IMG/VR virus record: IMGVR_UViG_2740892270_000010
Source: a virus
Lineage: Duplodnaviria; Heunggongvirae; Uroviricota; Caudoviricetes
DNA length: 4,574 bases
Strand: one strand, 5' to 3'
The notes below the pieces were generated by a model. The model was not told where the DNA came from. It did not search any database and saw nothing but the letters and a program-made list of their open reading frames with translations. Numbering within the stretch: the first letter of the stretch is position 1; the number at the start of each line of letters is the position of its first letter. This document shows, one piece after another, positions 1 through 4,574 of this stretch. The translations under genes were made by a program, and so were the position numbers.

Positions 1-172
1 GAGCACTTATAAATAACAGCCGTTAATATAAATTGGCTAATAGATTTATTTTTATTCAGTCAAGAGCCATGAATAGGATTCGATAGAAAAAAGTTCAGAT
101 AAAAATAGAGATCTACTTCACAAATCAAACGAGAAACCAAAACTTACATCTTGAAATAATCACATTGATTAG

Positions 173-1249
173 ATGAATATTTATCGCGCAATGACATCAT
201 TTTTTAATAATATGATGGCGATGTCTGCTCAGGCAGCTGAAATTTATAATAAAGACAGTAACAAGCTGGATCTGTACGGGAAAGTTAATGCTAAGCACTA
301 CTTCTCCTCTAATGATGCAGATGATGGTGATACTACTTATGCCCGTCTTGGCTTCAAAGGTGAAACCCAAATCAACGATCAACTGACTGGTTTCGGTCAG
401 TGGGAATATGAATTCAAAGGCAACCGCGCTGAATCTCAAGGTTCCTCCAAAGATAAAACCCGTCTTGCCTTCGCTGGCCTGAAATTCGGTGACTACGGCT
501 CCATCGATTACGGCCGTAACTACGGTGTAGCATACGACATCGGTGCGTGGACTGACGTCCTGCCAGAATTCGGTGGTGACACTTGGACTCAAACAGATGT
601 GTTCATGACTGGTCGCACCACTGGTGTTGCAACTTATCGTAACAACGACTTCTTTGGTCTGGTTGATGGTCTGAACTTTGCTGCTCAGTATCAGGGTAAA
701 AATGACCGCACTGACGTAACTGAAGCTAATGGTGATGGTTTCGGTTTCTCCACTACTTATGAGTATGAAGGATTCGGTGTAGGTGCAACCTATGCTAAAT
801 CTGACCGCACTAATAATCAGGTTATCTACGGTAACAACAGCCTGAATGCATCTGGTCAAAATGCTGAAGTATGGGCAGCTGGTCTGAAATATGATGCGAA
901 CAACATCTATCTGGCTACCACCTATTCTGAAACCCAGAACATGACTGTTTTTGGTAATAACCATATTGCCAACAAAGCACAAAACTTCGAAGTAGTTGCA
1001 CAATATCAGTTCGACTTCGGTCTGCGTCCGTCCGTTGCTTACCTGCAATCTAAAGGAAAAGACTTGGGTGCGTGGGGTGATCAGGACCTGGTTGAATATA
1101 TTGATGTAGGTGCAACCTATTACTTCAACAAAAATATGTCCACTTTTGTTGATTACAAAATCAACCTGATTGATAAGAGCGATTTCACGAAAGCATCTGG
1201 CGTTGCTACCGATGATATCGTTGCTGTAGGTATGGTTTACCAGTTCTAA
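173..1249 (+). CDS. nmpC: OmpC/NmpC/Lc-family outer-membrane porin (prophage moron); N-terminal signal region atypical, possibly 5'-rearranged
   Basis: 358-aa ORF. From about codon 15 ([14 protein letters not shown]...) to the C-terminal ...VGMVYQF it reads as a classical 16-strand enterobacterial porin of the prophage NmpC/Lc type, with a C-terminal Phe. The first ~14 codons ([14 protein letters not shown]) do not match the canonical MKKLTVAISAVAAS... signal peptide as I recall it. There is an in-frame TAG immediately upstream (170-172) and no good Shine-Dalgarno. Confidence 0.85.
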
Positions 1250-1258
1250 TTTGATTAC

Positions 1259-1298
1259 TAAAAGATATGTTGCGGGAGGCTTTGCCTCCCCAACATAT
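1259..1298 (-). terminator. Candidate rho-independent terminator for leftward (minus-strand) transcription, tR'-like
   Basis: Long imperfect hairpin: ATATGTTG-(C bulge)-GGGAGGC / loop TTT / GCCTCCC-CAACATAT (1265-1298). On the minus-strand RNA it is followed directly by a C + UUUUU tract (plus-strand A run 1259-1263). Confidence 0.5.
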
Positions 1299-1385
1299 AA
1301 GTGGCTCCCTCAAGCCACTTCCTTTAGGAGCACAACCTTGCTTCTAACTATATAAACCTTCTGTTATATATTACCCTTTATTTTT

Positions 1386-1412
1386 GGGGGCGTTGCAACG
1401 CCCCATTTTTAA
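1386..1412 (+). terminator. Candidate rho-independent terminator for the porin transcript
   Basis: GC-rich stem GGGGCGT/ACGCCCC (1387-1393 / 1398-1404) with loop TGCA, followed on the + strand by ATTTTTAATAATTTTT. On the minus strand the hairpin is followed by an A-run, so it is unidirectional. Confidence 0.5.
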
Positions 1413-1437
1413 TAATTTTTAGTAAACAATTGGCATA

Positions 1438-1821
1438 TTAATTAGAGTTATTAACAACGATATCCATCTCTAACCGGATATCTAATGCCATTAACATCCC
1501 TTCAATTATGCCCTCAGCCTTCTGTAACCTTTTCCCGATATAACCATCAGAGCAGCAATGCTTACCTGCCAGTGACATGAATGTCATACCGACTACATAA
1601 TAATCTACTAATAAATCGTGCAAATCGCTGTTGTTCTTTTTCAGACGGGCCATGCACCCGCAAATAATCATCGCGTCATCGTCACAACATTGCGGGCGAG
1701 ATTTTACTTTTGAAGTAATTAATCCCTTAAAACCGGCGGCAATGGACGACCAGGTCACATCTTCATGATTATTAGCCGCCCACGCTCCCCAACGCTCAAG
1801 AACCATCTGAATATCACGCAT
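1438..1821 (-). CDS. quuD: Late-gene antiterminator Q (phage 82 / DLP12 QuuD type)
   Basis: 127-aa product [24 protein letters not shown]...[16 protein letters not shown]...[12 protein letters not shown]... recalled as DLP12 QuuD / Q82 family with Cys-rich zinc-binding motifs. ATG at 1819-1821 (minus) has GGAG 7 nt upstream. The track ORF's TTG at 1834-1836 is treated as a spurious extension. Confidence 0.9.
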
Positions 1822-1906
1822 CAACTTACTCCACAAAAATCAGACCAGAACGCCAATTACAAGCAAAAATCAACAAAACAGTATTAGTTGATTGTTATCT
1901 CTGACT

Positions 1907-2047
1907 TCATACTCCTGCTCCTGTCAGGGTTTTGGCGTAATTCTTCAGTATTCGGTAATCGGTCAAAACAGAACCGGGGAAACGATATAAGCGCAGATGC
2001 CCCCAGCGGTGGCGAAGAAGTTCTGCCATATAAAACTCAAACATCAT
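1907..2047 (-). CDS. ylcG: Small 46-aa protein, YlcG-like (position and size match DLP12 ylcG)
   Basis: Hand translation of the minus strand gives [46 protein letters not shown]. Its ATG overlaps the rusA stop in an ATGA arrangement, with a GGGGAA Shine-Dalgarno-like element 5 nt upstream. Below the ORF-track length cutoff. Confidence 0.6.
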
Positions 2048-2406
2048 TCATTCCCCATTTCGGTGATGGTCAGTTCCAGCCTCCCACCTTTGGTAACAGG
2101 CATCTTCACAACGCGGTAATCAACGACCTGAGCATCATCCAGCCAGAAACCTGCTTTGGTGAGTGCGTCAAAAGCGGCTTTTTGCAGATTATCCAGGTCA
2201 CGGCGACGGCGATCCGGCATGTGGCACTCAATACGGATTTTCACTGGCATAGCCAGGCCGATATCCAGCATTGCGTTTTTAATGATTCGGGTGACGTTAT
2301 CGCGGTATGCCTGCCCTTCTGCGCTGATGTGTGTGCGCCCGCGATTATGGCGGTAATAGCGGTTATTGCTCGGAGGCCAGGGTAATGTGATGCTGTAGGT
2401 ATTCAC
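2044..2406 (-). CDS. rusA: Holliday-junction resolvase RusA (crossover junction endodeoxyribonuclease)
   Basis: 120-aa product [26 protein letters not shown]...[30 protein letters not shown]... is essentially the RusA sequence as I recall it. The start codon is GTG (reverse complement of 2404-2406), overlapping the ybcO stop as GTGA. Confidence 0.93.
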
Positions 2407-2693
2407 GCCTTAATAACCCCCTCTTTCAGCCAGATAACCTGCGTTCTCGCCATACCTTCCAGCGCGCATTCTTTTGCATACTCAGCATCGACAAAATATG
2501 TGCGGCGGTCGATTTCGTCGTGACAGGCAGAACATGCAATGGTGGCAATCAGGTCTGGCGGTTTGATACCGGTACCGCACAATCCAGCCAGCCGGATATG
2601 TGCCAGTACTGACGTTTCAGGATTGCCATTACATACGCCAGGGATTCTTACCTGGCATTCCCGACCACGCGCTGCTTTTCTCAAATCAGCCAT
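2403..2693 (-). CDS. ybcO: YbcO-family (DUF1364) Cys-rich putative nuclease of the lambdoid nin region
   Basis: 96-aa product [42 protein letters not shown]...[11 protein letters not shown]... matches DLP12 YbcO as recalled. ATG at 2691-2693 (minus) is preceded by AAGGAGG with a 4-nt spacer. The track ORF's 13-codon TTG-initiated extension is rejected. Confidence 0.9.
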
Positions 2694-2856
2694 GATTCCT
2701 CCTTGCTGCCAGTCGCAACCATTTTTTATCAACCAGGCTAGCGGTATATCCGAGCAGTGTTGGTATTTCGGATGGCTTCAGCTCAGGCTTACGCTTACGA
2801 CGATTTGATACTCTGTAGATGTGCCCGTTCATGACACGAATAAGCGGTGTAGCCAT
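2686..2856 (-). CDS. ninE: NinE-family small basic protein
   Basis: Hand translation gives [56 protein letters not shown] (56 aa), matching DLP12 NinE as recalled. Strong AGGAGG 4-5 nt upstream; its ATG overlaps the ybcN TAA as TAATG. Below the ORF-track cutoff. Confidence 0.8.
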   Translation of the reverse strand: MATPLIRVMNGHIYRVSNRRKRKPELKPSEIPTLLGYTASLVDKKWLRLAARRNHG

Positions 2857-3311
2857 TACGCCTCCTGCTTATCGCGCAGCTGCTGGTATTCACAGCTCTG
2901 CGGAATTGTCAGGTGGCAGCCGATATTCATCGCCCAGGCTTCGACTTTGCACAGGAAGATGTACATCTCGCCGGTTTCCAGCTCTGACGTATGGCGGAGG
3001 GATTGGACGGTGGTGACCTCGCCGGACACGACATCTACACGGTCTTTGCTTTCGTAGCCGAGATAGGTGTGCTTCATCGCGTCTTTGACCCACTCAGGCG
3101 TAGCGAAGGTCTTGCCGCGGGCGATGAGATATTCGCTGATCTCCGTGTACCACATGTGGCTGAGCGCGTTCTGCGACAGGCTGCGCTTCTCGCGCCACGG
3201 CTTAACCTGCAGGCGTAAGCATTGCCCGGCATCCAGCAATGGCTGAATCTGCTGGCCGATGGCCGCGAAGTTACCGCGATGGAGTTTGATGCCGTCTACT
3301 GGCAGAGTCAT
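2856..3311 (-). CDS. ybcN: NinB-family protein (YbcN-like; recombination mediator / DNA base-flipping protein)
   Basis: 151-aa product with the NinB-type motif ...WREKRSLSQNALSHMWYTEI... (compare lambda NinB ...RNRSLDQNRKLWA...). GGGAGG Shine-Dalgarno 4 nt upstream of the ATG at 3309-3311 (minus). Gene order ninB-ninE-ybcO-rusA-Q is canonical lambdoid. Confidence 0.9.
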   Translation of the reverse strand: MTLPVDGIKLHRGNFAAIGQQIQPLLDAGQCLRLQVKPWREKRSLSQNALSHMWYTEISEYLIARGKTFATPEWVKDAMKHTYLGYESKDRVDVVSGEVTTVQSLRHTSELETGEMYIFLCKVEAWAMNIGCHLTIPQSCEYQQLRDKQEA

Positions 3312-3403
3312 ACGGCCTCCCTAACGGAAACCGCAGAATGCAGAAAATCGCAGGTGCATTTCTGCATCTGTGACAAGGTGATGAGTTCAGATTGTGGTCG
3401 CAT
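3308..3403 (-). CDS. Possible 31-codon micro-ORF upstream of, and translationally coupled to, ybcN (YlcH-like position)
   Basis: Minus-strand ATG at 3401-3403 is preceded by AAGGGGA with a 5-nt spacer and an in-frame TAA just upstream. Product MRPQSELITLSQMQKCTCDFLHSAVSVREAV*; its TGA overlaps the ybcN ATG as ATGA. No homology claim possible. Confidence 0.3.
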   Translation of the reverse strand: MRPQSELITLSQMQKCTCDFLHSAVSVREAV

Positions 3404-3422
3404 TTAAGTCCCCTTAAATGCG
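3399..3422. repeat. Perfect inverted repeat: 10-bp arms with a 4-bp centre (CGCATTTAAG-TCCC-CTTAAATGCG)
   Basis: Read directly from the sequence. It spans the Shine-Dalgarno and start codon of the micro-ORF and lies in the leader of the ybcN operon. No adjacent U-tract on either strand, so it is not a canonical terminator. Confidence 0.6.
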
Positions 3423-3459
3423 CAGAAGTCACCGGAGTTGTTCAGGCTCCGATGAGAGG

Positions 3460-3488
3460 ATTATGGCGGATTGATTACGATAAATCAA
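3460..3488 (-). promoter_or_regulatory. Candidate sigma70 promoter reading leftward into the ybcN-ninE-ybcO-rusA-ylcG-quuD operon
   Basis: On the minus strand: TTGATT (3488..3483), 17-bp spacer, CATAAT (3465..3460). It sits at the GC-composition junction between phage backbone and AT-rich cargo. Confidence 0.35.
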
Positions 3489-3575
3489 AACTATCTTGAA
3501 GCCAAAACAGTGATCTTCGCTTTAAAAACCTTGTATACTTTCACCTAATCACAGCCAGAACTATGGATCTAACCA

Positions 3576-3953
3576 ATGACCAACAAAGAAAACAAAGATA
3601 AATATATTAACAAGTTCAAGAAAGAGCTTTCAAAATATATACAACCAACTGCTGGAGTGGACATTCAATTATTTAACTCTAAGGATGGTGGTGGTGTAAT
3701 TAAAGCCACTTTGAATAGAAGTGGAAAAAGAAAATCATCTATTGCTGGTAATTTTACTAAATTAGGTGAGGCAATTACCTCGAGTGGGCAGAGGGTTTTT
3801 GGTGGTGATCTATCAAATGTGAATTTTTACGGAACAAATACGATTTTTGATGGAGATACAATATTTTTAATTAAATCACCTGATTCAGAGGAGTGGTCAT
3901 CACAAAAAGCTTCCAAAGACGTAGAGGGCATCGTATTTGGAGGGAAAAAATGA
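3576..3953 (+). CDS. Hypothetical 125-aa Lys/Gly-rich soluble protein (AT-rich cargo gene A), function unknown
   Basis: 378-nt open frame in DNA of roughly 25-30% GC, where random frames are dense in stops. ATG start; no signal peptide or transmembrane segment; no family I recognise. A TATACT -10-like element lies at 3534-3539 upstream. Confidence 0.6.
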   Translation: MTNKENKDKYINKFKKELSKYIQPTAGVDIQLFNSKDGGGVIKATLNRSGKRKSSIAGNFTKLGEAITSSGQRVFGGDLSNVNFYGTNTIFDGDTIFLIKSPDSEEWSSQKASKDVEGIVFGGKK

Positions 3954-4035
3954 TTAACATTACTACTAAGGATGCACTCAAGTCAGTGGTGAAGTAAGAG
4001 ATCTAGTAATTCTTCTTGAAACTGATGGAAAAACG

Positions 4036-4377
4036 GTGTCTGATTATTTGCAGCCAATCCCTCCCAAAAAAGATACACACTGGAGCATGATTTTCATTCC
4101 GGTAGCAATTTATATACTACTTAATCTTGTATACATTATTGCTCACCCATTATTTCCTGAAAAATATCTAAAAACATCAACATCTATATTTCTATTCATT
4201 TCCTTCATATTAAGTGCAATAGTAGCATATTTTGTTTTCCATAAGCATAAATCTGCCACTCTATCCATATGCAGCTTAGTGTTCTTAGTGTTAATTGTAG
4301 GTGCTAACGTAGGGTTTATCAGTTACAGCGACCTAACACAAAAAGCGACGCAAAAATTAGATAGTTTGTCTAAATAA
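4036..4377 (+). CDS. Hypothetical small integral membrane protein with three predicted transmembrane helices (AT-rich cargo gene B); start codon uncertain
   Basis: Open frame in AT-rich DNA. Three hydrophobic stretches of about 20 residues (IFIPVAIYILLNLVYIIAHPLF; SIFLFISFILSAIVAYFVF; LSICSLVFLVLIVGANVGFI) separated by short charged loops. First start in frame is GTG at 4036; an internal ATG at 4087 would give 96 aa. Same strand as gene A, 82 bp downstream. Confidence 0.6.
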   Translation: MSDYLQPIPPKKDTHWSMIFIPVAIYILLNLVYIIAHPLFPEKYLKTSTSIFLFISFILSAIVAYFVFHKHKSATLSICSLVFLVLIVGANVGFISYSDLTQKATQKLDSLSK

Positions 4378-4484
4378 TTATGTTGCCATGCGAAGTATGC
4401 ATGGCTGCATGTCTGCCTTCCATTTAAAATGGGCTAAGACCTATAACCCTAAATATTATTCTTTATTATCTTCTTTACCACTTC

Positions 4485-4574
4485 GGTGATGCTGCCAACT
4501 TACTGATTTAGTGTATGATGGTGTTTTTGAGGTGCTCCAGTGGCTTCTGTTTCTATCAGCTGTCCCTCCTGTTC
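4485..4574 (+). mobile_element. IS1 insertion sequence, left terminus (IRL) and first 90 bp; continues beyond the window
   Basis: GGTGATGCTGCCAACTTACTGATTTAGTGTATGATGGTGTTTTTGAGGTGCTCCAGTGGCTTCTGTTTCTATCAGCTGTCCCTCCTGTTC is the IS1 left end as I recall it, including the ~23-bp terminal inverted repeat. Confidence 0.9.
4540..4574 (+). CDS. insA: IS1 InsA (transposition regulator), N-terminal 11 codons only; truncated by the window edge
   Basis: GTG GCT TCT GTT TCT ATC AGC TGT CCC TCC TGT translates to MASVSISCPSC, the InsA N-terminus. Confidence 0.8.
   Translation, partial: MASVSISCPSC

Follow-up and report, generated by a model that had tools for sequence, protein, structure and literature searches.

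The best described porins of the nmpC/lc type are Lc of PA-2 (record J02580) and NmpC of the cryptic lambdoid prophage DLP12, which are encoded on the opposite strand between the antiterminator gene Q and the lysis genes and carry an AQA/AEIYNK junction between signal peptide and mature protein. Copies of this gene occur in several states. The nmpC copies of Escherichia coli K-12 and phage 434 are inactivated near the 3' end by the insertion sequence (IS) IS5 ('IS5 insertion after codon 346'), while an intact allele of 360 amino acids (aa), variously named OmpD, OmpC or LC, is present in other strains (P0016; WP_000737275.1 in strain ETEC1731). Here we analyse a further copy, which lies in a window of 4,574 nucleotides (nt), i.e. 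the entire contig CWUG01000251.1 of the draft assembly GCA_001254715.1 of Shigella sonnei. The open reading frame (ORF) in question encodes 358 aa and is deposited in GenBank as CSG30077.1, labelled Shigella sonnei and described as a 'putative outer membrane porin protein C precurser'. Our analyses suggest that a short deletion has removed the start and the export signal of the porin gene in a decaying S. sonnei prophage, and that the outcome is probably a null allele produced by ordinary gene decay.

The window gene is the nmpC/lc lysogenic-conversion gene itself, placed antisense between Q and the lysis cassette; annotators have named porins of this type OmpD or 'OmpC'. It is the same gene as PA-2 lc and DLP12 nmpC, with the same position and the same AQA/AEIYNK junction, but it lacks the Shine–Dalgarno sequence, the ATG and codons 1–15, and its mature region represents another allele (88–89% identity at the DNA level). 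The 360-aa gene of ETEC1731 specifies the same mature protein among the same neighbouring genes, and differs in retaining 67 nt that hold a Shine–Dalgarno sequence, an ATG and the full MKKLTVAISAVAASVLMAMSAQA signal peptide. The copy in the complete genome CP060117.1 (hereafter L007) is likewise untranslatable from its native start, but its lesion is a +1 slip in an A-run without any deletion, and it has the ancestral C and G at the positions equivalent to window nt 60 and 191. A further comparison is offered by the lamB and malE signal-sequence mutants of Emr, Silhavy, Bassford and co-workers, in which loss or interruption of the hydrophobic core reportedly leaves a cytoplasmic precursor and no export. 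In those mutants, as in the window, the core is lost or broken on an otherwise intact exported protein; however, the laboratory mutants keep their Shine–Dalgarno sequence and start, whereas the window gene has lost its start as well and is either a natural allele or an artefact. The window allele is an ordinary, known kind of lesion, and is neither a new leader, nor a replaced 5' end, nor a new kind of element.

We aligned window nt 1–330 with the corresponding sequences of E. coli H10407, the PA-2 lc record J02580 and phage 434. The alignments are interrupted by a discrete gap between nt 212 and 213, on both sides of which the sequences are otherwise near-identical, with similarity resuming at nt 213. 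The gap measures 66 nt when the comparator is H10407 or phage 434, 67 nt for PA-2 and ETEC1731, and 68 nt for L007, because the comparators differ in the lengths of two A-runs. Such a gap is no product of chance. The absent stretch has the form GTTC-A(7–8)-GGGCTCACG-ATG-A(6–7)-TTAACAGTGGCAATTTCTGCTGTAGCTGCATCAGTAC and comprises the last 20–21 nt of the 5' untranslated region (UTR) with the Shine–Dalgarno sequence AAGGG, the ATG, codons 1–15 and the first base of codon 16. The intact signal peptide has 23 residues and corresponds to the sig_peptide feature at 1492–1560 of PA-2 J02580; the deletion takes its n-region and most of its hydrophobic core. No microhomology was found between the two sides of the junction (AATAATA/GTTC... 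versus ...CAGTAC/TGATGG), the joining of which forms a new in-frame A/TG at nt 212–214. The junction also builds a small inverted repeat (CATCAT ... ATGATG) at window 195–217, whose pairing could hide ATG212 and ATG215 within a hairpin; nt 160–260 fold no more stably than shuffled sequence (z = −0.48).

The sequence to the left of the junction belongs to the gene. Nucleotides 1–212 are colinear with the sequence directly upstream of lc/nmpC in PA-2, phage 434, H10407, ETEC1731 and L007, window nt 1 corresponding to PA-2 nt 1259. Identity is 99.1% to phage 434 and Chlobot and 98.6% to the PA-2 lc upstream region, and only 2–3 mismatches over the 212 nt separate the window from PA-2 lc, phage 434, H10407 and ETEC1731. 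Just two positions within this region, T60 and A191, differ from H10407, phage 434, L007 and ETEC1731, and both changes are rare. Window 25–95, which carries T60, has an exact match in only 2 of the 1,114 matching complete E. coli genomes, and T60 is found at none of 12 comparator loci. An exact match to window 142–212, which carries A191, is found in none of the 2,324 matching complete E. coli genomes; G stands at this position in all 11 comparator loci that cover it, the remaining locus (L010) being deleted there. A scan of nt 1–1450 for the sigma-70 consensus returned no promoter-like site and leaves the transcription start unplaced, and the literature searched gave nothing specific on nmpC as a pseudogene in Shigella, or on its promoter or transcription start site.

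Given this alignment, the first 40 nt of the annotated frame are an accidental in-frame extension into the 5' UTR rather than a leader. In alleles with the A7/A6 runs, e.g. that of H10407 (MNIYRAVTSFFNNSSKKGLTMKKLTV...), the native 5' UTR contains an ATG, equivalent to ATG173, in frame with the porin, while in L007 this ATG is out of frame. The deletion keeps ATG173 in the porin frame, and so a 358-aa ORF appears and has been annotated as a porin precursor. The same in-frame ATG in A7/A6 alleles accounts for a 380-aa 'LC porin' call on record (P0011), which is probably an over-extended gene call and not a longer precursor; at locus L001 (3173–3310, equivalent to window 173 onward), the 5' UTR ATG opens a 380-aa frame (MNIYRAVTSFFNNSSKKGLTMKKL...). 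Gene callers have placed the start of the window locus and its relatives at four different positions, giving products of 358, 345, 344 and 342 aa. The window frame itself holds five in-frame ATGs (i.e. at nt 173, 191, 212, 215 and 221), and Shine–Dalgarno pairing is absent at all five (duplex energies of +0.4 to +1.8 kcal/mol, against −4.4 kcal/mol at the canonical start). Starts at ATG212, ATG215 or ATG221 would give a protein that lacks a signal peptide and has no more than 8 leader residues.

Most of what the first-pass annotation had read from this frame holds. It had called the 358-aa ORF with a leader followed by an AQA/AEIYNKD start, and had pointed out that a TAG directly abuts ATG173 in frame, that no convincing Shine–Dalgarno sequence precedes the gene, which we find to be true of every in-frame ATG, and that the h-region is broken by Asn-Asn, to which a Thr-Ser interruption can be added. 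Its estimate that canonical coding similarity begins at about nt 212 agrees with the resumption at nt 213, and the breakpoint that it had suspected inside the signal-peptide coding region is placed by our alignments between nt 212 and 213.

We then considered whether the window leader could serve in export. An uninterrupted hydrophobic core of ~7–15 residues is lacking, since from either ATG173 or ATG191 the core is broken by T-S and N-N. The best 10-residue Kyte–Doolittle mean of the window leader, from ATG173 or ATG191, is 0.71, compared with 2.27 for the native NmpC/Lc signal peptide, 1.9–3.1 for 13 well-studied signal peptides of E. coli and related bacteria, and 1.4–2.0 for the export-defective mutants LamB A13D, MalE M18R and MalE A14E; the measure is a heuristic, but the margin is large. 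The n-region contains one basic residue (R5) if translation starts at ATG173, and none from ATG191 onward. The A-X-A cleavage motif is kept (AQA/AEIYNK, nt 227–235/236), and what follows is undamaged. The Pfam family Porin_1 (PF00267) matches residues 27–358 with 510.6 bits over profile positions 1–337 of 337, i.e. a full-length 16-strand porin domain. The 337 mature residues are identical to those of a 360-aa protein that has the canonical signal peptide and is encoded on at least 1000 contigs under the names 'outer membrane porin protein LC / porin OmpD'. At the DNA level, the mature region is 100% identical to L007 and 88–89% identical to H10407, PA-2 lc and phage 434 nmpC.

These observations can be assembled into a simple course of events. 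With 66–68 bp missing, the upstream region (nt 1–212) is joined directly to the last seven signal-peptide codons and the intact mature coding sequence. Ribosomes would then meet no Shine–Dalgarno sequence at any in-frame ATG, and the gene may go untranslated. Any product started at ATG212, ATG215 or ATG221 would have no signal peptide and would stay in the cytoplasm, while products started at ATG173 or ATG191 would carry a leader too polar for the Sec machinery. We infer that the porin gene is a null allele owing to its 5' end alone, and of the outcomes raised in the first-pass annotation, a porin that is export-defective or in effect a pseudogene is the most likely. In the complete genome CP060117.1, the same locus is already inactive, with a +1 frameshift where the A-run follows the ATG. 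If that genome represents the parent, the deletion most likely arose secondarily, as a neutral lesion in a gene that had lost its function before, in keeping with the ordinary genome decay of Shigella.

Several points weigh against this reading. The deletion is seen in one draft assembly only. T60, A191 and the deletion are clustered within 212 nt, while another S. sonnei contig matches the following 4,267 nt perfectly, and such clustering is not predicted by simple neutral decay. An intact 360-aa product exists in some S. sonnei records, and the parental state, frameshifted or intact, is taken from one complete genome. Both the hydrophobicity and the Shine–Dalgarno measures are heuristics; initiation independent of a Shine–Dalgarno sequence is sometimes possible with AT-rich leaders; and with the nmpC transcription start unplaced, some of the ATGs may lie outside the mRNA.

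We also asked how widely the junction is distributed. A 70-nt junction probe found no site with at least 80% coverage in 5,426 complete E. coli genomes, every match ending at the junction, and no copy of the junction 24-mer is present in GTDB species representatives, IMG/VR or JGI metagenomes. The 358-aa product occurs on a single contig, and no record exists of its Val7 variant (i.e. the deletion without G191A). The deletion is strain-private or possibly an assembly error. Among sister loci, the nearest in E. coli are those of porcine enterotoxigenic E. coli (ETEC) strains, which are 99.5% identical over nt 1–4485 and have the intact 360-aa gene. The closest overall is L007, which is 99.98% identical over window 213–4574, including the IS1 junction at the right end; the L007 product (P0001) carries the label Shigella sonnei, along with other names. 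L007 keeps the 68-nt stretch with ATG-A7, in which A7 instead of A6 causes a +1 frameshift and the frame stops after 24 codons.

S. sonnei-labelled drafts contain two porin DNA alleles that are ~98.4% identical, encode the same mature protein and first differ by a single-nucleotide polymorphism (SNP) at window nt 274 (window 213–1249 compared with L012, L015, L016, L017 and L022). The two alleles lie in different nin-region contexts, allele 2 being followed by AraC-type and PBP-family genes, and their shared 5' part breaks short-read contigs at nt 210–221. Two candidate patterns in these drafts were set aside. The 345-aa S. sonnei products, whose length would fit a start at the junction ATG, looked like carriers of the deletion in 16 more assemblies, but their contigs start with (T)ACTGATGG, i.e. 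canonical sequence cut at the contig end, with CTG called as the start. Contig starts at 210–221 were likewise considered as a sign of an IS insertion or a junction artefact, a view that we largely reject: they arise because the two alleles fork short-read graphs about one k-mer upstream of nt 274, and because our search selected for them. Contigs break elsewhere as well, as is clear from partial products of 356, 352 and 334 aa.

The alternative that deserves most attention is an assembly artefact, in which the isolate has the CP060117.1 form, with the 68 nt present and the A8 run and ATG-A7 frameshift in place, and the stretch was dropped during assembly or gap-closing. The confinement of the junction and the 358-aa product to one draft contig is what this would predict, and two more rare or unique base changes lie within 152 nt of the junction, while the 4,267 nt beyond it show no difference from another S. 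sonnei contig. The absent stretch, moreover, holds two homopolymer runs in very AT-rich DNA, and two near-identical nmpC alleles with a first SNP at nt 274 break short-read contigs nearby. However, the junction flanks have no sequence in common that could cause a false de Bruijn or overlap join, and the contig contains no Ns. The right end of the contig, 90 nt into IS1, implies a k of ~91, with which the SNP at nt 274 would place a node start at ~184 and not at 213, while the contig starts of other assemblies at 210–221 partly reflect the selection of products that start there. On balance, we consider an artefact unlikely, though by a long way the most serious of the alternatives, and a real deletion quite probable. 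The locus is a pseudogene in either case, since under the artefact the gene would be inactivated by the frameshift instead of the deletion.

Two other explanations would give the new 5' end a positive origin or role, and both receive far less weight. One is that a frameshifted nmpC has been revived by in-frame fusion to a leader derived from the 5' UTR, with G191A supplying a new ATG and C60T altering expression, to yield a porin whose export signal is novel, weak or non-classical; loss of OmpC or OmpF might select for such a change. NmpC was discovered as a porin that becomes active in ompC ompF mutants, and the deletion does give one continuous frame of 358 aa where the L007 locus is out of frame. 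The in-frame ATG made by G191A is absent from 2,324 genomes, the three changes cluster in the regulatory and 5' region, and the leader still has one basic residue (R5) and the AQA cleavage motif. Yet no start has a Shine–Dalgarno sequence, the core, broken by T-S and N-N, is less hydrophobic than that of known export-defective mutants, a slip from A7 to A6 would restore the native gene by a far likelier route, and the single isolate gives no sign of spread. Such a revival is highly improbable, as is the variant with a novel leader that the first-pass annotation had left open, in view of the missing Shine–Dalgarno sequence and the value of 0.71 for its best 10-residue stretch. The other explanation is that recombination replaced the 5' end with foreign DNA, e.g. 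an IS end or another moron, as had been proposed because the 14 N-terminal codons and the AT-rich upstream region are unlike the canonical signal peptide. The upstream region is indeed AT-rich, but it is not unlike the canonical locus: nt 1–212 are the native nmpC/lc upstream sequence (2–3 mismatches; colinear at 98.6–99.1% identity), this is the only type of match found, and the sole IS sequence in the window is the IS1 end at 4485–4574. Searches with BLAST against phages and E. coli refute an origin of nt 1–215 from an IS end or another moron. What remains at the 5' end is the promoter and 5' UTR region of the gene itself, from which a piece was lost and into which nothing was inserted, so that recombination with another element need not be invoked, and we give a foreign replacement next to no credence.

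A short deletion with loss of function remains the preferred reading, and related contigs carry other lesions at the same end of the gene. Among contigs encoding the identical mature protein, we found (i) an A6-to-A5 slip in L004 and L008; (ii) an A6-to-A7 slip in L005, L006 and L007; (iii) a change of ATG to ATA in L009 and L011; (iv) a different, 88-bp deletion from the 5' UTR into codon 11 in L010; and (v) an IS2 insertion directly before codon 19 in L020 (300–450). With the window deletion, these make six different 5' lesions, in a sample that was picked via truncated products and has no denominator; those of L004–L011 lie ~70–100 nt upstream of the called 344-aa gene. The 5,426 complete E. 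coli genomes contain no exact match to the full length of the A5, A7 or ATA alleles, while the exact canonical 71-nt 5' segment is found in ~2,389 records of complete E. coli genomes. The idea that the A-run after the ATG is a general slippage hot-spot in E. coli was therefore dropped as unsupported. It is conceivable, but rather doubtful, that the nmpC/lc 5' end is a recurrent target of inactivation in Shigella-type lineages, with pathoadaptive or phage-driven loss like that of ompT or cadA, the window deletion then being one hit among many independent ones; neutral decay accounts equally well for the set of lesions.

Table 1. Features of the 4,574-nt window, with the grounds for each assignment.
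Feature	Position (nt)	Strand	Basis or remark
Native nmpC/lc promoter region and most of the 5' UTR, retained	1..212	+	Alignments
Rare C-to-T substitution	60	+	
Putative CRP-type binding site (TGTGAagtagaTCTCT on the minus strand), retained	105..125	-	Transferred from PA-2 J02580 misc_binding 1363-1383
In-frame TAG abutting ATG173, bounding the accidental ORF extension	170..172	+	Canonical loci have the TAG too
Porin ORF, 358 aa	173..1249	+	ORF call
5' UTR read as codons 1-13 and the first base of codon 14	173..212	+	Same nt upstream of the true ATG in H10407, PA-2 and 434
G-to-A substitution turning in-frame GTG into ATG, this contig only	191	+	
Deletion junction, 66-68 bp absent	212..213	+	Alignments
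Signal-peptide remnant: codon 16 without its first base, then codons 17-23 (MAMSAQA, with the cleavage motif AQA)	213..235	+	
Intact coding sequence of the 337-residue mature porin, with stop	236..1249	+	Pfam; identity to the 360-aa protein
Q antiterminator gene	1438..1836	-	
YlcG gene	1907..2044	-	Gene call
RusA gene	2044..2406	-	
YbcO gene	2403..2732	-	
NinE gene	2686..2856	-	
NinB/YbcN-type protein gene	2856..3311	-	
AT-rich ORF, PHROG 18061, unknown function	3576-3953	+	
AT-rich ORF, PHROG 16940, unknown function, membrane-protein-like	3950-4377	+	
IS1, first 90 nt (left end, GGTGATGCTGCCAACTTACTGATTTAG...)	4485-4574		Right end of window

The genes around the porin place the locus in its prophage setting (Table 1). 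Their order is that of a DLP12-type cryptic lambdoid prophage and recurs in H10407 and ETEC1731. Syntenic loci have the lysis genes, including those for spanins, immediately to the left of the region equivalent to the window, with holin and endolysin genes so placed in H10407, phage 434, L007 and ETEC1731. By gene content and order, the window is a remnant of a cryptic DLP12-like lambdoid prophage of S. sonnei. At the position equivalent to window 4485, ETEC1731 runs on into the phage replication gene P and not into IS1; the S. sonnei prophage would thus be cut off or interrupted by IS1 at this point. A second IS1 is present in L007 (6794–7561), between the holin gene and the nmpC upstream region.

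The two AT-rich plus-strand ORFs near the right end oppose the surrounding nin-region genes and lie between the NinB/YbcN gene and, in E. coli, the replication gene P. No Pfam family scores above its cut-off for either, PHROG 18061 and PHROG 16940 being their only matches, and together they look like a moron cassette. In the second of them, one G is absent at window 3973 (GGATG-GCAC) compared with L007, so that a 142-aa ORF is shortened to 113 aa (4036..4377); in ETEC1731, the syntenic position is annotated with an ORF of 429 nt (142 aa). The S. sonnei contig L013 shares this frameshift, which suggests that this second pseudogene is probably real.

The intergenic region between the porin gene and Q (1250–1437) contains a GC-rich hairpin at ~1268–1300, after the porin stop, and, at 1387–1404, a strong hairpin (GGGGCGTTGCAACGCCCC) that precedes a T-run and resembles a terminator. 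The late promoter PR' with its terminator, and IpeX, a porin-regulating small RNA (sRNA) known from DLP12, are presumably to be sought in this interval. An Rfam scan of the window, e.g. for porin-regulating sRNAs, gave no match up to an E-value of 1.

The main value of these results lies in the correction of annotation. CSG30077.1 is almost certainly no porin precursor, and a pseudogene flag is warranted. The four differing start calls inflate the apparent diversity of porin N-termini, and work on the outer-membrane repertoire of S. sonnei (e.g. prediction of phage receptors, antibiotic permeability or antigens) should exclude the porin copy of this window. Biologically, the locus is another case of the decay of prophage cargo genes in Shigella, and it would raise a new question only if the nmpC/lc 5' end proved to be a recurrent target of inactivation.

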